This document shows, one piece after another, positions 3,007-14,834 of a stretch of 64,000 nt of DNA; positions within the stretch are counted from its first letter, which is position 1; each line of letters opens with the position of its first letter. Where the stretch lies: NCBI GenBank assembly GCA_963847705.1, contig CAWKBC010000021.1, positions 192,001 through 256,000 of the forward strand, given 5' to 3'. Under the pieces are notes generated by a model, which was not told where the DNA came from, ran no database searches, and was given only the letters and a program-made list of their open reading frames with translations. Made by a program: the position numbers and the translations under genes. Source of the stretch: an uncultured Pseudomonadota bacterium (GTDB taxonomy: Bacteria; Myxococcota_A; Polyangia; Fen-1088).

Positions 3007-3981
3007 GTGTCCGCGCGCCGGCCCCTGCCTCCTTACGATCCCCAGCTGGCCCTCCTCGCGAAATCCGCGCCCGAGGGTGACGGGTGGCTCCACGAGGTCA
3101 AGTTCGACGGCTTCCGGATCGGAGCCGCCGTCGAGCACGGCCGGGCGACGCTGCTTTCGCGGCGCGCGAAGGACTGGACGGCGGAGTTTGCCTCCGTCGC
3201 CGCGGCCGCGGCGCGGCTGGGGGCGAAGAGCGTTTTACTGGACGGTGAGGTTGCCGCCGTCGGGAGTGACGGCCGCACCTCGATGGGCGGGATGCACGAG
3301 GGCTCCAACGGATCCACGATCGCGTACTTCGTCTTCGACTTGATTCACCTCGACGGCGAAGACCTGACCGGGCGGCCCATCGAAGAGCGAAAGGCGCGCC
3401 TCCGGGACCTGCTGGGCCGCGCACCGCCCGTGCCGCTTCGTTATGTCGACCACGTCGTCGGCGGCGGCCCCGCGTTCTTCGAGGAGGCCTGCCTCCACCG
3501 CCTCGAAGGAATCATCTCCAAGGCGGCCGGGTCGACCTATCGCCCCGGCTCCCGGAACGCGACCTGGCAGAAGGTGAAGTGCGTCCTCCGGCAGGAGTTC
3601 GTGATCGGCGGCTACGAGCATTCGACGGTCGGAACCCTGGGCGCGCTCTGGCTCGGCTACTACCTCCCGGACGGCAGCCTGGAGTTCGCGGGGAAGGTCG
3701 GCACCGGTTTTCAGCGCGAGTCGGCCGGTTTGCTGAAGGCGTTCAAGAAGCTGGAACGCGACACCCCCCCGTTCGGTCCGGGGCTACCGACGGGCTTCCG
3801 GGTGCGGGACGCGGTGTGGCTCGAGCCGACGATGGTCTGCGAGGTCGAGTTCATGGAGTGGACCGGGCACGGCCACATCAGGCATCCGTCGTATCAGGGG
3901 CTGCGGCCGGACAAGGAGCCGGGCCAGGTGGTGCGGGAGGTTGCGGGGAAGGTGCCGGTGTTGCCGAAGGGGTTGCGGTAA
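3007..3981 (+). CDS. ligD: ATP-dependent DNA ligase, stand-alone LigD ligase domain (NHEJ-type)
   Basis: EVKFDGFR adenylation motif, LDGEV, FDL, EGIISK, WQKVK, QEFVIGG, GKVGTGF, IRHPSYQGLRPDK. Confidence 0.85.
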   Translation: MSARRPLPPYDPQLALLAKSAPEGDGWLHEVKFDGFRIGAAVEHGRATLLSRRAKDWTAEFASVAAAAARLGAKSVLLDGEVAAVGSDGRTSMGGMHEGSNGSTIAYFVFDLIHLDGEDLTGRPIEERKARLRDLLGRAPPVPLRYVDHVVGGGPAFFEEACLHRLEGIISKAAGSTYRPGSRNATWQKVKCVLRQEFVIGGYEHSTVGTLGALWLGYYLPDGSLEFAGKVGTGFQRESAGLLKAFKKLERDTPPFGPGLPTGFRVRDAVWLEPTMVCEVEFMEWTGHGHIRHPSYQGLRPDKEPGQVVREVAGKVPVLPKGLR

Positions 3982-4918: not shown

Positions 4919-5305
4919 TTGGTGACCCGTCGAACCCAGCCCGTCCTGGGGGTGCGGTTCTACCGGACGCCGACAGGAGCTCGTCCAGTGCGGGACTGGC
5001 TCTTGTCCCTATCGAGAGAGGTACGACGAGAAATTGGCGCCGACATCGGGAGAGCTCAATGGCAATGGCCGGTGGGAAAACCCCTGGTCGACGGGTTCGG
5101 CGGCGGCCTCTACGAAGTCCGGACGTCGCACGAGGGTGAGCAGTACCGCGTGCTCGTCTACGTCGATGGCGACGCGTTGGTCCTGGTCCACGGCGAGTCA
5201 ACCCGGGGGACGATGGTGCTCGTGCATGGGATTCACAAGAAGACGCAGAGGACGCCGGCCGCGGCGATCGCGCTCGCGCGGAAGCGCATGAAGGAACGGA
5301 CATGA
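4919..5305 (+). CDS. RelE/ParE-superfamily toxin (Gp49/DUF891-like)
   Basis: FYRTPTGARPVRDWL, WPVGKPLV, GLYEVR, HGIHKKTQRTP; ATGA overlap with the downstream HTH gene. Confidence 0.85.
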   Translation: MVTRRTQPVLGVRFYRTPTGARPVRDWLLSLSREVRREIGADIGRAQWQWPVGKPLVDGFGGGLYEVRTSHEGEQYRVLVYVDGDALVLVHGESTRGTMVLVHGIHKKTQRTPAAAIALARKRMKERT

Positions 5306-5628
5306 AGAGGCAAACCAAGGACGAGCTCGCAGAGATGTTCGAGGAGCTCGGCGAGCTCGAGGAGGTTCGAGCGCTCACGCGGAAGAAGGTCCTCGCCGAC
5401 GGGCTCCGGAAGGCGATGAAGTCGCAGAAGGTCACGCCTGCCGAGATGGCCCGGCGCATGGGGACGAGCCGGCCGACCGTGTACCGGTTGCTCGACCCCG
5501 CGGAGCGTGGGGCGACGCTGGACACCCTGGAACGGGCGTCACTCGCGCTGGGCCTCGATCTCCAGATCAGGCTGGTGCCGGCGGGTAGGCCGAAGGGACG
5601 CCGACAGTCCAGCCGCCGCGCCGCGTAG
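5302..5628 (+). CDS. HTH antitoxin, cognate of the upstream toxin
   Basis: AEMARRMGTSRPTVYRLLDP...TLDTLERASLALG; coupled to the toxin. Confidence 0.85.
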   Translation: MKRQTKDELAEMFEELGELEEVRALTRKKVLADGLRKAMKSQKVTPAEMARRMGTSRPTVYRLLDPAERGATLDTLERASLALGLDLQIRLVPAGRPKGRRQSSRRAA

Positions 5629-5632
5629 GCGA

Positions 5633-5661
5633 TTGCCCCCGCCTTGCGCCGCGGCTATGCT
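5633..5661 (+). promoter_or_regulatory. Sigma70-like promoter for the uORF/release-factor locus
   Basis: TTGCCC (5633-5638)-N17-TATGCT (5656-5661); +1 predicted near 5668. Confidence 0.6.
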
Positions 5662-5667
5662 CGAACT

Positions 5668-5721
5668 GTGAAGTCAGCGCTCCGGATCGGCCTGTTCGCC
5701 TCCTCGCAGCCGCGCTATTAG
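5668..5721 (+). CDS. Putative leaderless leader peptide MKSALRIGLFASSQPRY*
   Basis: GTG at the predicted TSS; TAG lies in a GCCGCG..CGCGGC hairpin; contains CTCCTCGC (5700-5707), complementary to the downstream SD region GCGAGGAG (5776-5783). Confidence 0.5.
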   Translation: MKSALRIGLFASSQPRY

Positions 5722-5789
5722 CCGCGGCGACGTCGGCGATCCGTCTGTCGAGCGCCAGAGTGAGAGTCGTTTCACGCGAGGAGTGCCCC

Positions 5790-6484
5790 ATGTCCGTCAC
5801 GTCCGTTCCGTCCGTCATCGTCGAGATCCGCGCCGCCGAAGGGGGCGAGGACGCCAAGTCCCTGGTCGACGAGCAGCTGCGCATCTACGCCCGCCGCGCG
5901 CTCCACCACGGTCTTTGACCTGGAGGTCGTCGAGGCGCGGCGGGGCCTCTGCGTCCTGCGCGTGAGCGACCGAGGAGGGGCGCGCGCCGAGCCCCTGTTC
6001 CGCGACGAGGCCGGCGGCCACCGCTGGCAGCGCGTCCCGCGCAACGAGAAGCGCGACCGCGTCCACACCAGCACCATCACCGTCGCCGTGCTCCCCGAGC
6101 CAACGGAGGTGGAGGTGCGCGTCGCGGAGCGGGATCTGGAGTGGTCGACCTGCTACGGCACCGGCCCCGGCGGCCAGAAGCGCAACAAGACCGAGTCGAC
6201 GGTGCTGCTGACGCATCGGCCGTCGGGGTTGCAGGTGCGGTGCGAGACGTCGCGCTCGCAGCAGCGGAACCGGGTCGTGGCGCTGGGGTTGTTGCGGGCG
6301 CGGCTGTGGGCGCTGGAGGCGGCGCGGGTGGGGGAGGCGCGCGCGGCGGAGCGGCGGGGGCAGGTGGGGTCGGGGATGCCGGGGGACAAGCGGCGGACGG
6401 TTCGGGCGCAGGACGGGACGGTGGTGGACCACGTCGCGGGGAGGCGGTGGGAGCTAAGGGGGGTATTTGAGGGGGGCTTGGTAA
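5790..6484 (+). CDS. Short class-I peptide chain release factor homologue (RF1-like, no domain 1) with a putative +1 frameshift at CTT-TGA-C (5913-5919)
   Basis: SD GAGGAG + ATG 5790: VEIRAAEGGEDAK...; +1 frame: EAGGHRWQRVPRNEKRDRVHTSTITVAVLP, GPGGQKRNKTESTV, CETSRSQQRNR, GDKRRT. End is TAA 6482-6484 if the G6 run is G5, otherwise 6624. Confidence 0.85.
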
Positions 6485-6553
6485 ATGGGGCGCACTCAGC
6501 TAGAGACGTCGAGGACAGCGAGGGTCCGTTCGCAGTACTATCAGCCCGCCGTT

Positions 6554-7495
6554 GTGAAGGTCTACGTCGCCGTCACCGACAAGGACTGGTTTCAGTTTCT
6601 TGGCCGCCTCAAGGAGCGGCGTGAGGCGGCGGGGGACACGTTAGACGAAGTGAATTTCTGGCAACCCGGGGGAAAGCAGCTCTTCAAGGCGCAGCAGCCT
6701 GGGGATCTCTTCCTCTTCAAACTGCACAGCCCCGACAACTTCATCGTCGGTGGAGGGTACTTCGGGCACGCGTCGCTGCTGCCTGCGCCTCTCGCGTGGG
6801 AGGCCTTCGGGCAGATGAACGGCGCCGTCTCTTTCGATGAGATGCAGATGCGGATCGCGAAGTACCGCCGGATCTCGGACGTCCGCGAGCACTTCACGGT
6901 CGGGTGCATCCTGCTGCAGAGCCCATTCTTCCTGGAACCGTCCCGTTGGATTCCCGCGCCGACGGACTTTCACCTCAATATCGTGCAGGGGAAGGGCTAT
7001 GACGGTTCCTCGTCGGAAATGCAGCGCGTGGTAGCTGCGCTCGGAGCGCCGGGCTTGACCGGGCTGCCGATCGGATTGGCCGAGGTCGATGGACCTATGT
7101 TCGGCGATCCGACGCTGGTTCGTCAGCGCCTAGGCCAAGGAACATTCCGCGTGCTGGTCACGGACACGTACGAACGGCGATGCGCGATCACGCGAGAACG
7201 CACGCTCCCGACGCTCGAAGCTGCTCACATCCTGCCCGTCGGCGAGGGGGGGAGGCACCGCGTGGACAACGGCCTTCTGTTTCGGTCGGATGTGCACCGG
7301 CTCTTCGACGCTGGTTACGTGACCGTCACACCCGACTACCGCTTTCGCGTCAGCAGCAGAATCAAGAAGGAGTTCGAAAATGGGAAGGAGTACTACGCGA
7401 TTGACGACCGGCCGCTGTGGCTTCCTGCCAATCCAGCCCTGCAGCCGAACAAGGAGTTTCTCTCCTGGCACTCGGAGGCGCGATTCGTGGGATAG
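6554..7495 (+). CDS. HNH endonuclease with N-terminal putative modified-DNA-binding domain (putative restriction endonuclease)
   Basis: VAVTDKDW, EVNFWQP, FLFKLHSP; RLGQGTFR, CAIT, LEAAHI, NGLLFRSDVHRLFDAG. Confidence 0.85.
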   Translation: MKVYVAVTDKDWFQFLGRLKERREAAGDTLDEVNFWQPGGKQLFKAQQPGDLFLFKLHSPDNFIVGGGYFGHASLLPAPLAWEAFGQMNGAVSFDEMQMRIAKYRRISDVREHFTVGCILLQSPFFLEPSRWIPAPTDFHLNIVQGKGYDGSSSEMQRVVAALGAPGLTGLPIGLAEVDGPMFGDPTLVRQRLGQGTFRVLVTDTYERRCAITRERTLPTLEAAHILPVGEGGRHRVDNGLLFRSDVHRLFDAGYVTVTPDYRFRVSSRIKKEFENGKEYYAIDDRPLWLPANPALQPNKEFLSWHSEARFVG

Positions 7496-7504
7496 GGTCG
7501 GCCC

Positions 7505-7849
7505 ATGACACCCCTCGACGAGCTTCGCGGAGAGCTTCGAGCTTTCGTAACGGCACGCGACTGGGAACAGTTCCACGACCCGAAAAATCTGGCCATGCTG
7601 GTGGCGTCAGAAGCCGGGGAGCTGGTGGCGGAGTACCGATGGATCCGAAGCGACGAGGCGGACGCTCACTCTCGCGAGCCGGCAACGCGCGAACGGATTG
7701 CAGCGGAGGTAGCCGATGTGGGGATCGGACTGCTGCTTCTATGCGAAAGGATCGGGTTGGATCTGGTGGAGGTGATGCGGGCGAAGGTGGCTAAGAATGC
7801 CGAGCGGTATCCGGCGGAGGCGGCGCGGGGACGGGCGGAGCGACCATAG
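7505..7849 (+). CDS. MazG-like nucleotide pyrophosphohydrolase (dCTPase-like)
   Basis: RDWEQFHDPKNLAMLVASEAGEL...EVADV...KNAERYP. Confidence 0.9.
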   Translation: MTPLDELRGELRAFVTARDWEQFHDPKNLAMLVASEAGELVAEYRWIRSDEADAHSREPATRERIAAEVADVGIGLLLLCERIGLDLVEVMRAKVAKNAERYPAEAARGRAERP

Positions 7850-8147: not shown

Positions 8148-11100
8148 TTGGACGATAGCCTGAGCGGCATCGTGAGCAATCTCGAAATCGGCCGCGAGCG
8201 GACCGTCGTGACGTGCGATGCTCCGCTCGTGGCACGCCCGCTTCCGGAGGGAGTCTACGAGCATCCAATCACCCGGGAACTCGAGGCGGCGTTGCAGGCG
8301 CTCGATGCTGATCGACAACAGCTTGGCGCGATCGGAGACGCGGAGAGTCCCGCCGTCGTCGCTCGACATGTGGCACAGGAACTTGCCCGCGTACTTGACG
8401 GCACCGATATCAAGGACCGTGCGGAGGTCGCCCGTGCGCTAGGTGATCGACTGCTCGCGGAGATTGCGACGTTCGCCACGGCTCACCACCAGGACGAGGT
8501 GCCGGTCCTCGACCAACGACTCGCACCGCCGCCGCGTCGACTGCTCTCGATTCACAAAGGCCGACCGCCGGCTCGTCCAGAGACACCATTTTCGACATCC
8601 ACCCTGCTCACCCGGAATCGTGCTGAGCCGGCCCTTGGACGCGAGCTTGCATGCGAGCTAGGCACGGCCAATCGTGTAGATGCCATCGTCGCCTTCGTTA
8701 CGGTGGGCGGAGTTCGACTGCTCGGCGAGGCTCTTGAAGAATTCAGCGCTCGGGGCGTCGGACTTCGGTTTCGCTTGCTGACGACGGTCTTCAGCGGGAC
8801 CACAGAGATCGAGGCGATGGACCGCCTTGCACGGCTGCCCGGGGTACAAATCAAGATTTCCTACGACGTACGTCGGACACGACTTCACGCCAAGGCATGG
8901 CTCTTTCATCGCGACAGCGGCCTGTCGACGGCGTATGTCGGTTCGGCCAACCTTACGTCGACGGCGCTCGGCGGTGGCCAAGAGTGGATGGTCAAGGTCT
9001 GCGCGGCCGACCTCCCTCAGGTGATCGAGAAATTCGAAGGCACCTTCGACAGCCTCTGGGAGGATCCGGAGTTCGAGGCATACGATCCCGGTCAGGAAGA
9101 AGGTCGCACGCGCCTGCGATCCGCCCTGGGCGCCGAACGTTCGGGCTCGGACGTGCCGACTTCGCTGGTCTCGCTTCGGCCGCTCCCATTTCAGGAGGAG
9201 ATCCTCGATCGGCTAAGGGTCGAACGCGAGCTTCACGGGCGCCGCCGAAACCTTATCGTTGCCGCCACCGGCACTGGCAAGACTGTCATCGCCGCATGTG
9301 ACTACGCGCGCATCGCTGCCGCATTAGGCACGCGTCCCCGACTGCTCTTTCTCGCCCATCGGAAGGAGATCCTTCTGCAAGCGCGCGACACGTTCCGTCA
9401 TGCAATGCAGGACGGTGCCTTTGGTGAACTTCTGGTCGACGGCGACCGCCCTGAGGCTTACCAACACGTCTTCGCTACAATCCAGAGCTTCGCCGCGGCG
9501 GGGCTGATCGAGCGCCTCGGGCCCGCCCACTTTCACCACGTCGTCGTCGACGAGTGTCACCATCTCCCAGCGCCGTCGTATCAAAGCGTCGTTCTGCGCC
9601 TGCAACCCGACATCTTGGTCGGCCTCACTGCCACACCCGAACGCAGCGACGGGAAGTCACTGCTGCCCGACTTCGACGGTCATGTCGCGCACGAGCTTCG
9701 CCTGTGGCAAGCGCTAGACCAGCAACTTCTGGTTCCGTTCGAGTACTTCGGGATCTCAGACACCACGGATCTGCGAAGCGTCCGTTGGACACGCACCGGT
9801 TACGACCAGGCAGCGCTCTCCGACCTCTACACGGGCAACGATGCCCGCGCCGCGCTGGTGCTGGCACAACTGGCCCGCCGCGTCGGCGACCTGCGCATGA
9901 TCCGCGCACTCGGATTCTGCGTCAGTGTCGAGCACGCTAAGTTCATGGCCACGCAGTTTTGCATTGCCGGCACTCCTGCCCTGGCCGTCCACGGTGATTC
10001 GCCTGCCGACGAGCGCGCGCGCGCCGCCGCCCGTTTGCGTGAGCGCGAGGTGAACATCGTCTTTACGTGCGACCTTTACAATGAGGGCGTCGACCTCCCA
10101 TTCGTGGATTCGCTCCTGTTGTTGCGGCCCACTCAGAGCGCGACGCTATTCCTTCAACAGCTCGGCCGCGGTCTGCGCCATCACGAGCGTAAGGAGTCCT
10201 GTCTAGTTCTCGATTTTATTGGCCAACAGCATGAGCGTTTCCGCTTCGATGGTCTTTTCAGCGCCATGACAGGTGTGCCTCGTGCCCGGCTGACTAAAGC
10301 GGTCGCGGACGGCTTCCCCTATCTCCCGAGCGGCTGCACGGTCCAACTTGACCGCGTCGCTCGCGATGAGGTCCTTCGCTCGCTCCGACAGACGGTCGCC
10401 ACCGCCCGTACGATGGTGCCTGAACTCAAAGAGCTCGCCGCCGAGAAATCGGGCGCGTTGTCATTGCGCGAGTACCTCGCCGCGACAGGTCGCGAACTCG
10501 AAGATATCTATGCGGCCGGCGGCTGGACGACATTGAAGCGCCGGGCGCGCTTGGCCGACGGCGATGATGCCGAGACGGAGGATCTCAGTCGTCGACTTGG
10601 ATGGTTACTACACATCGACGAGCCTGCGCGGCTGCAAGCCCAAGGGTTGGCCATCTCCCTACCTGACGGCGGCCAGGTCGACGGGGCACTCTCAGCAATC
10701 GATAAGAGGCGGATCGAGATGCTCGACGCTCAGCTTTGGCCTCGTGGTGAGGTCCGATCCGCCGAGGAGACAGTACATGCCCTGACGGAGCGTCCAGGCA
10801 TTGCGGCGGAGGTGGGTGAATTACAGGAGGTCCTAAACGAGCGGATAGTCGTTGCGAGCGCGATCTATCCGGTACCGGAGTGGCCGCTCTGCCTGCATCA
10901 CCACTACTCGCGGCGGGAGATCGTGGCCGCAGTAGGGTTTGTTGGACAGGGGGAGAAGAAGAAGAGTCTTCAAGGAGGCATCCTCACGCTGAAGGACCGT
11001 CCGTGCGAGTTGCTTTTCGTTACGCTCGACAAGACCGGTGCTGGCTTCTCGCCCACCACCCGCTATCGAGACTACGCGATCAGCCGAGACCTGTTTCACT

Positions 11101-11342
11101 GGGAGACGCAAGGGGCGGCGAGCGTATCGCGCCCGAGTGGGCGTCGGTATATAGAGAGCCCAGGCAACGGTATGACGTTCCAGCTATTCGTCCGGCTGGG
11201 GCCAGACGACGCGTTCGCGTACCTGGGCCCTGCGCTTTATGTGCGACACGAGGGCGACCGACCGATCGCGATCACTTGGAAGTTGGAGGCCCCGATGCCC
11301 GGGGGACTCTTTGAGAAATACGCGACTTTGGCAACGTCGTAG
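8148..11342 (+). CDS. PLD nuclease-SF2 helicase-DUF3427 protein (SauUSI-like type IV restriction enzyme)
   Basis: LHAKAW...GSANL (PLD), ATGTGKT, DECHH, TATPER, EGVDLP, QQLGRGLR; C-terminal YRDYAISRDLFHWETQ. Confidence 0.85.
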   Translation: MDDSLSGIVSNLEIGRERTVVTCDAPLVARPLPEGVYEHPITRELEAALQALDADRQQLGAIGDAESPAVVARHVAQELARVLDGTDIKDRAEVARALGDRLLAEIATFATAHHQDEVPVLDQRLAPPPRRLLSIHKGRPPARPETPFSTSTLLTRNRAEPALGRELACELGTANRVDAIVAFVTVGGVRLLGEALEEFSARGVGLRFRLLTTVFSGTTEIEAMDRLARLPGVQIKISYDVRRTRLHAKAWLFHRDSGLSTAYVGSANLTSTALGGGQEWMVKVCAADLPQVIEKFEGTFDSLWEDPEFEAYDPGQEEGRTRLRSALGAERSGSDVPTSLVSLRPLPFQEEILDRLRVERELHGRRRNLIVAATGTGKTVIAACDYARIAAALGTRPRLLFLAHRKEILLQARDTFRHAMQDGAFGELLVDGDRPEAYQHVFATIQSFAAAGLIERLGPAHFHHVVVDECHHLPAPSYQSVVLRLQPDILVGLTATPERSDGKSLLPDFDGHVAHELRLWQALDQQLLVPFEYFGISDTTDLRSVRWTRTGYDQAALSDLYTGNDARAALVLAQLARRVGDLRMIRALGFCVSVEHAKFMATQFCIAGTPALAVHGDSPADERARAAARLREREVNIVFTCDLYNEGVDLPFVDSLLLLRPTQSATLFLQQLGRGLRHHERKESCLVLDFIGQQHERFRFDGLFSAMTGVPRARLTKAVADGFPYLPSGCTVQLDRVARDEVLRSLRQTVATARTMVPELKELAAEKSGALSLREYLAATGRELEDIYAAGGWTTLKRRARLADGDDAETEDLSRRLGWLLHIDEPARLQAQGLAISLPDGGQVDGALSAIDKRRIEMLDAQLWPRGEVRSAEETVHALTERPGIAAEVGELQEVLNERIVVASAIYPVPEWPLCLHHHYSRREIVAAVGFVGQGEKKKSLQGGILTLKDRPCELLFVTLDKTGAGFSPTTRYRDYAISRDLFHWETQGAASVSRPSGRRYIESPGNGMTFQLFVRLGPDDAFAYLGPALYVRHEGDRPIAITWKLEAPMPGGLFEKYATLATS

Positions 11343-13835: not shown

Positions 13836-14834
13836 TCAGGCGTAGCGCTTGGCGGCCCGCCGCAGCTCCCCCGCCACCGCCTCCCGCAGCTCCGCCGGCT
13901 CCACCACCCGCGCGTCCCCTCCGAACCCCAGCACCCACCCCACCACCTCCGTCGTCCCCCGCACCTCCATCGTCATCTCCAGCCCCGCCGCCGTCCGCTT
14001 GAACCGTTGCGTGGGGTGCCACAGGACCCGCTCCACGTAGCGCGCCACCTTCGGGTCGAACAGGATCCGCACGCGCGTCACCTCCGACCCGCGGATCAAC
14101 CCGAAGGCCCCCTCGGTCAGCTGCTCGGGGCGGTAGTCGGCCGGGTAGTCGAACGCGTCGCCCCGCAGCCACTCGACCTCCCGGAACGCATCCAGCGCAA
14201 ACGTCCGGAGCGCGCCCGCGTGCCCCTCGCTCCGCCCCACCAGATACAACCCCTTCTTGTAGACCATCAGGGTGTACGGCTCGAGGACGAAGGTCTTCCT
14301 GCCGCCCGAGACGCTCTCGTGGGTGACCCGCAGGCGCTCCTCGCGCAAGAGCGCGGTGACGATGTCGTTCACGTCCTCGATCCGCCCCTCGTAGAGGTGG
14401 CGGGCCTCGTTCACGTCGAAGACCTTGCGATCGAGGTTGCGGGCGGCGGCGAAGTCCTTGCGGCGGAGCTGCGCCTCCAGCTTGCCGAAGAGATCGTCCA
14501 GGTCCTCCTTGAACCCGGTGCCGGCCAGGAAGTCGAACACGCGGCGGGAGAGAAACAGCGCCACCATCTGGGCGGTCGTCAGGGTCACCGTCTGCTGGCG
14601 GGCGCTGGCCATCAGGCGCCAGACCTTGCGCCGCCCCTCGACCTCCTCGTAGAGCGGCTCGCCCGCCATCTGCAGCGCGCGGATGTAGCGGATCGCCGTG
14701 CGGACGCTGACGGCGAACCGCTCGGCGATGTCGTAGACGCTGGCCCCCTCGCCGCTGTTGAGCAGGCCGCGCACCTCGGCGAGGCGGCGGGCGGGGGCGT
14801 AGCGCTCGGCGCGGGGCGGTCGGCGGGCGGGCAT
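13836..14834 (-). CDS. HTH-WYL-WCX transcriptional regulator
   Basis: wHTH IAERFAVSVRTAIRYI; LEPYTL..GLYLVG; WHPTQ; WVLGFGGDARVVEPAELR. Confidence 0.9.
   Translation of the reverse strand: MPARRPPRAERYAPARRLAEVRGLLNSGEGASVYDIAERFAVSVRTAIRYIRALQMAGEPLYEEVEGRRKVWRLMASARQQTVTLTTAQMVALFLSRRVFDFLAGTGFKEDLDDLFGKLEAQLRRKDFAAARNLDRKVFDVNEARHLYEGRIEDVNDIVTALLREERLRVTHESVSGGRKTFVLEPYTLMVYKKGLYLVGRSEGHAGALRTFALDAFREVEWLRGDAFDYPADYRPEQLTEGAFGLIRGSEVTRVRILFDPKVARYVERVLWHPTQRFKRTAAGLEMTMEVRGTTEVVGWVLGFGGDARVVEPAELREAVAGELRRAAKRYA

Follow-up and report, generated by a model that had tools for sequence, protein, structure and literature searches.

Programmed recoding of bacterial release-factor genes has so far been described for RF2 at UGA only. 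The RF2 gene, prfB, is the closest counterpart of the locus presented here, as both carry CTT followed by a stop codon, mostly with C thereafter, early in a release-factor gene. According to the accessible part of a 2025 survey of 8,164 genomes, the stop of the prfB motif is never TAG and prfA is without a conserved site (PMC12421855), while the accessible part of a 2016 review knows neither an RF1 counterpart nor an in-frame UGA case (PMC5009743). The protein itself resembles PrfH (RFH), likewise a short class I release factor without an N-terminal domain and with a patchy spread. In P. aeruginosa, armZ-prfH sits behind the leader peptide PA5471.1, for which an antibiotic-responsive control of transcription has been proposed (PMC12057347, seen in part). 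In the portion of text available for another PrfH paper, the words 'phage' and 'frameshift' are absent (PMC6514570), and a study of huge phages notes RF1 and RF2, with frameshifting unmentioned in its available portion (PMC7162821). We found no paper on the present family or its leader in a search outside which most subscription papers lay. Family members may be present among the 34 prfA 'pseudogenes' in Table S1 of PMC12421855 and in the material supplementing PMC7162821 and PMC6514570.

The leader of the locus has precedents of a different kind. ermCL is a uORF that acts as a translational attenuator, and in TnaC-type leaders a ribosome arrested at the leader stop governs downstream expression, with tryptophan being sensed via a fixed peptide. 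The present leader is like TnaC in that a ribosome held at the leader stop would control expression, and unlike it in that the leader peptides are variable and no ligand is indicated. In toiL-topAI of E. coli, the RBS downstream is masked by base pairing with a short uORF until a stalled ribosome relieves this occlusion (accessible text of PMC12121999), an arrangement that is predicted for the window's leader as well. The present leader differs from toiL and ermCL in that the comparative signal lies in its stop codon and that a second gate, likewise dependent on a stop, is predicted within the controlled gene.

The locus lies in a stretch of 64,000 nucleotides, here called the window, from an uncultured bacterium of the Polyangia whose genome has a GC content of 69%. 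A promoter-like pair of hexamers, a uORF containing an anti-SD, a hairpin around the uORF stop and an SD-containing arm precede the two frames of a short RF1-like gene (Table 1). An earlier note on this DNA had described TTGCCC, the 17-nt spacer, TATGCT, the GTG, the 17-codon ORF with its TAG, the anti-SD, the SD arm and the hairpin, and all of these were confirmed to the nucleotide.

Table 1. Leader elements and parts of the split RF1-like gene, with positions in the window.
Feature	Position	Strand	Remarks
-35-like hexamer TTGCCC	5633..5638	+	TTG kept in 7/8 aligned relatives; absent from consensus scan output
-10-like hexamer TATGCT	5656..5661	+	T, A and last T invariant in 8/8; 17-nt spacer from -35
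Predicted transcription start	at or just before 5668	+	inferred from -10 placement
uORF, 17 codons, GTG start	5668..5721	+	ends in TAT TAG C; TAG at 5719-5721; ATG start in two relatives
Anti-SD CTCCTCGC within uORF	5700..5707	+	19-12 nt ahead of uORF stop; pairs with 5776-5783
Hairpin enclosing uORF stop	5709..5728	+	in MFE fold and alignment fold
SD-containing arm GCGAGGAG of the release-factor-like gene	5776..5783	+	ATG of gene at 5790
First frame of short RF1-like gene, 42 codons including alpha-5 tip (AEGGED)	5790..5918	+	ends in TGA
CTT TGA C, predicted site of programmed +1 frameshifting	5913..5919	+	without internal SD
Second frame of RF1-like gene	5917..6484	+	PRN 6037-6045 at PxT position; GGQ 6169-6177
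Run of G with one base more than in relatives	6458..6463	+	one contig each in runs X1 and X3 without the extra base

Upstream of the leader, a Gp49/RelE-like gene and an HTH gene form a toxin-antitoxin-like pair (4919-5628), with 4 nt left between its end and the -35 box; pairs of this kind also precede the relatives L047 and L057. An ATP-dependent ligase gene is located at 3007-3981. On the other side follow an HNH nuclease with a weak match to a phosphorothioate-dependent restriction enzyme (6485-7495), a MazG-like protein (7505-7849) and a PLD-helicase-DUF3427 protein (8148-11342), a setting that resembles a defence island. The ORF at 13836-14834 on the minus strand encodes a protein which we take to resemble a WYL-domain regulator. 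No conserved neighbourhood was found around family members.

The two halves of the gene match consecutive stretches of the Pfam families PCRF and RF-1. Because the alignment of the joined protein covers RF1 residues 111-321 only (E 4e-35), starting at about residue 111, domain 1 is missing; the match to RF2 is poorer and that to PrfH weak. The protein reaches 154 bits on the RF1 profile, compared with 400 bits in the full-length RF1 comparison. The second-frame piece reaches 56.4 bits on the PrfH profile TIGR03072, below its cut-off of 166.65, and the family further differs from PrfH in retaining a PxT-type motif and in its neighbours: no RtcB was found next to the gene in the window or among 22 scanned neighbours of relatives, a part of all neighbours. 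The window's genome gave no PrfH match; it holds separate intact genes for RF1 (prfA), RF2 and ArfB. GGQ is present in all 120 parsed genes, in which the PxT position reads PPT (74), PPN (37), PPS (7) or otherwise (2), the window having PRN and its close relatives PPN. For a natural unsplit relative, the predicted fold (pLDDT 84) is like domains 2-4 of a release factor, with TM-scores of 0.90 to closed RF2 and 0.81 to RF1. Judged by its sequence, the product is likely a backup release factor, with predicted release activity. The gene had been read before as that of a release factor; the protein is no ordinary one, being RF1-derived, without domain 1 and split at CTT-TGA-C, and the need for a +1 frameshift at CTT-stop had been missed.

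The stop codon of the relatives matches 6482-6484, while the frame of the window as assembled continues to 6624. The extra G at 6458, which two soil contigs do not have, may be an assembly error or an early decay of this copy, whose private changes lie at 6041, 6380-6381 and 6458.

The family was found in 46 of the 401 genomes of the class that were searched and also on phage contigs of up to 485 kb; the nearest informatively named relatives are Polyangia and Myxococcales MAGs. We examined 143 loci (46 viral, 16 genomic and 80 metagenomic ones and the window), of which 8 were unparsed and 19 dropped as duplicates, leaving 116 non-redundant loci. In a quick tree with RF1, RF2 and PrfH (48 family rows; three PrfH rows and several RF1 rows left out), monophyly of the family has a support of only 41, and we therefore make no claim on its origin or on the direction of transfer. 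Annotated phage records added nothing on the family. Its database entries have 165-222 aa, as gene callers annotate the second half only, which may explain why the family has been overlooked. Phage copies (e.g. L012, L016, L029, L033 and L036) often lie directly 3' of tRNA-like sequences, 9 of 43 by a T-loop pattern.

At the junction between the two halves, 93 of the 116 non-redundant loci need a +1 shift; a further 17 carry a TGA in frame within this linker, and the remaining 6 show no break. CTT plus a stop is found at the junction in all 93 +1 loci, with TGA in 57, TAG in 33 and TAA in 3, and again in 36 of 36 +1 loci of a later set, two of them being repeats. This constancy points to programmed +1 frameshifting at CTT-stop. 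At the window's own prfB the site reads CTTTGAC and is accompanied by an SD-like run. The family departs from prfB in encoding an RF1-like protein without domain 1, in using any of the three stops, and in an extra upstream uORF with a matched stop; furthermore, an internal SD-like run, present in 31 of 43 viral copies, is absent from the window and its clade.

Several copies depart from this layout. In L031, L034, L041, L044, L109, L134 and L147, one or two in-frame TGA codons, about 25-45 codons past the start motif, replace the frameshift. Genome-wide recoding of UGA was considered for this clade and found no support, as the UGAs are gathered in a single linker and the rest of the gene encodes Trp by TGG. 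Four in-frame-UGA copies (L109, L110, L119 and L121) appear to start 9-10 nt after a -10-like box without an SD and are possibly leaderless. Among unbroken copies (L052-L054 and L120, three of them in one Myxococcales MAG), an 8-codon uORF ends in CTT TGA C in three of four, and complements of the SD lie on both sides of its stop. L057, in which a deletion runs from the hairpin of the uORF to a point inside the gene and further stops occur, is probably a dead copy.

The uORF shows conservation of the coding type. Codon variants among relatives are synonymous in 13 cases and non-synonymous in 6 (binomial p=2e-4), and the variable columns fall 3/2/9 on the three codon positions. In the eight aligned relatives, conservation sets in at the start codon, GTG or ATG, and indels are confined to the outside of the uORF. 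Its DNA identity is 0.78-0.96, compared with about 0.2-0.35 over the 40 nt upstream in six of seven relatives; where the gene products share 81-83% identity, the uORF DNA has 0.78-0.80 and the spacer 0.47-0.49. Other relatives have different short peptides at the equivalent place, and sequences diverge widely across the family. By these comparisons the uORF is real, and the synonymous bias supports the earlier proposal that it is translated, from a start that may be leaderless or nearly so.

The predicted promoter matches the consensus at 8 of 12 positions, and a consensus scan of the leader called no site. Six nucleotides separate the -10 hexamer from GTG 5668, and 6-11 nt in relatives. A -10 box at this distance 5' of the uORF occurs in 20 of 35 high-GC loci versus 3 of 40 later loci. 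A stricter pattern of promoter plus uORF, with criteria tuned on the same loci, is seen in 16 of 35 loci of high GC, in 1 of 34 of lower GC and in 0 of 43 viral ones; in the window's genome, for which genes were called roughly, it precedes 0 of 467 and 3 of 1538. Out of sample, in a test fixed in advance, the strict pattern failed (2 of 40 later loci, the -10 box alone giving 3 of 40); in these loci uORFs are visible and the -10 boxes non-canonical. Since the pattern fits just 2 of 40 later loci, a leaderless start is predicted for the window's clade only.

No Rfam match was found in the window, no further copy of the leader elsewhere in its genome and no leader of similar kind before the genome's arfB. 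RNA runs X18-X20 gave just a few low-depth contigs. In L103 the leader is missing and the promoter lies directly at the SD. None of 43 viral copies has the leader, and none of 39 is preceded by an SD-led mini-ORF.

A further comparative signal concerns the stop codons of the uORF and of the junction. A first test of their match was underpowered (3/3 pairs, p=0.25); the match was set down as a test before 42 further loci were fetched. After removal of 2 unparsed loci, 5 repeats, 1 locus without a +1 junction and 8 without a uORF call, 26 later loci remained. The two stops are identical in 18 of 22 first-set loci and in 24 of 26 later ones, where uORFs were called by C-terminal motifs picked by eye with the junction visible, the stop identity lying outside the motif and 8 of 34 loci giving no call; the total is 42 of 48. 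In the control, the uORF stop equals the terminal stop in 4 of 22 and 3 of 26 loci. Among independent pairs on the 48-row tree, the stops switch the same way in 6.7 of 8 and oppositely in none (sign test p 0.016-0.031), while the terminal-stop control on the same tree yields 1.4 same and 1.8 opposite. Junction stops change 13 times on the tree and uORF stops 9 times. Mismatches, with a UAG uORF and a UGA junction, are seen in the window and the two relatives nearest to it; here the junction stop is not constant, and soil contigs too have either TGA or TAG.

The uORF stops also stand in a weak context. TAA is found in 0 of 48, a C follows at +4 in 44 of 52, and a T-ending codon precedes the stop in 36 of 52. 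Counted by hand-assigned groups, which are not fully independent, T precedes the stop in 10 of 17 (10% of 2385 genome ORFs) and C follows in 14 of 17 (35% of genome ORFs). TGAC is likely a poor terminator (PMC12421855, partial text). The co-switching favours the sensing of slow termination over general antibiotic stalling. The idea that the stop is the sensing point thus gains support from both co-switching and context, and the uORF stop likely acts as a termination sensor; the analogy with antibiotic-response leaders drawn in the earlier note gives way to slow termination through release-factor shortage. Even if both stops drift to the weaker one of the host, the uORF stop would be under selection for slow termination.

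The anti-SD helix dominates the predicted fold of the window's leader, with a pair probability of 0.98-0.99. Of 3000 mononucleotide shuffles, 28 produced a perfect complement of 8 nt over AGGAG. By helix energy, a comparison with 150 dinucleotide shuffles gives p=0.079 for the window; two leader families yield 0.007-0.08, and several others are not significant. The fold energy of the whole leader is no better than that of shuffles (z=0.24). Could the leader features be chance or relics without a regulatory role? The two shuffle values of the window would allow it, as would the private changes of its gene, though these concern the window's copy and not the family. Set against the synonymous bias, the sharp conservation boundary, the absence of indels, the co-switching stops and the rarity of the pattern in the genome, we find this explanation scarcely credible.

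A position of the anti-SD at 19-13 nt before the stop is shared by two sequence-unlike leader families, the family of L050 having it in the same place as the window, and two further families have it 17-8 nt before the stop; in several others it is weak. Among the aligned relatives we found no both-sided compensatory change in the helix, so the covariation proposed as a check did not appear. Occlusion of the SD, as originally claimed, is thus a fair reading of the folding results for the window's clade and may not hold for the family at large.

Known ribosome footprint sizes guided the modelling of SD opening, in which a 31-nt footprint was blocked during folding. In this model, opening the window's SD costs 7.5 kcal/mol without a ribosome and 5.1 with one at the stop (genome median 6.3), 11-12 with a ribosome at codons 2-7, and 13.1 when the spacer is blocked instead. 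The expected release by a ribosome at the stop is thus reproduced, although an A site at codons 9-11 opens the SD equally, at about 5 kcal/mol. Among the 26 first-set leaders, a ribosome at the stop saves more than 1 kcal/mol in 17, and two queued ribosomes do so in 19. In the later set a ribosome at the stop opens the SD in 8 of 25 leaders, a share that does not exceed the 12 of 25 of the spacer control, and with one leader per family the opening cost is not higher than for genome genes (p=0.17). In L086 and L090, which have nearly the same peptide as the window, a single ribosome at the stop leaves the SD closed; these leaders use another register, opened by early or middle ribosomes. In terms of this modelling, opening by a ribosome at the stop is not general beyond the window's clade.

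These results bear on two other accounts of the leader. It could be a general ribosome-stress attenuator like toiL or ermC, in which an antibiotic stalls ribosomes at any point of the uORF's second half, the nascent peptide perhaps aiding, the SD is thereby opened and the stop is incidental. The equal effect of codons 9-11, the behaviour of L086 and L090, a peptide kept along its full length at 81-83% release-factor identity and the precedents of toiL (PMC12121999) and of PA5471.1 upstream of armZ-prfH (PMC12057347), both seen in part, speak for such an attenuator. It is nevertheless unlikely, as it leaves the matched stop switches, the absence of UAA and the weak stop context unexplained and peptide sequences vary widely across the family. 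The other account keeps the sensor and changes its output: ribosomes that get past the uORF stop would travel along the spacer, unwind the SD helix and so supply initiation, rather than masking the anti-SD from a parked position. The out-of-sample failure of the parked-ribosome model fits such a bypass, as do the 39 of 52 leaders in which a ribosome reading through finds no stop in its frame farther than 20 nt upstream of the start, and apidaecin causes pervasive stop bypass (PMC7544508, partial text). In the other 13 of 52, including the window (TGA 29 nt before the ATG), readthrough halts earlier, and the frame between uORF and gene is not conserved (20/14/18), a distribution that also led us to reject an in-frame fusion of uORF and gene. 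We regard the bypass as improbable.

A stalled ribosome might instead control transcription, through Rho-dependent or intrinsic termination in the leader, with the SD helix being secondary. PA5471.1 offers a precedent (PMC12057347), toiL ties SD occlusion to Rho termination (PMC12121999), both sources being available in part, and the anti-SD is weak in several leader families. The plus strand of 5000-7500, however, holds no terminator-like site and the SD helix dominates the window's leader, which makes transcription control very improbable.

We thus favour, as the probable reading overall, a model in which the uORF stop is a sensor that frees the hidden SD and CTT-stop is a second slow-termination gate leading to a backup release factor. 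The model starts from what the sequences and their comparison display, namely a uORF conserved in the manner of coding sequence, a complement to the SD, a gene in two frames, a CTT-stop junction throughout the family and two stops matched in identity and in weak context. To these it adds, as predictions, the start site, translation, the dwelling of ribosomes, the opening of the SD, the frameshift and peptide release. During normal growth, quick termination at the uORF stop would leave the SD paired, and a ribosome initiating the gene anyway would end translation at codon 43. With release factors scarce or trapped, ribosomes would park and queue at stops, as they do with apidaecin (PMC7544508, in its accessible part). 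A ribosome lingering at the uORF UAG would then free the hidden SD of the RF1-type gene, and a second slow termination at CTT-stop would allow the +1 shift that yields the full GGQ protein. The trigger would likely be a shortage or trapping of RF1 at UAG/UAG loci and of RF2 at UGA/UGA loci; for the UAG/UGA pair of the window, both factors would have to be slow.

More tentatively, we propose that short RF1-derived backup factors, undescribed so far, are common to huge phages and Polyangia-type bacteria and sit behind two serial termination sensors whose stops co-switch between UAG and UGA. Each locus would report the failure of RF1 or RF2 and supply a factor that bypasses it, e.g. after the action of a toxin, a phage or an RF-trapping peptide.

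To the recoding known from RF2, the family adds an RF1-derived gene, a predicted +1 frameshift at any stop, a subclade with in-frame UGA and a leader stop that tracks the internal stop. This raises the question of what disables release factors in soil or during phage infection, and the leader is a potential reporter for RF1 versus RF2 activity. If our reading holds, bacteria and phages would own an inducible answer to termination failure itself.
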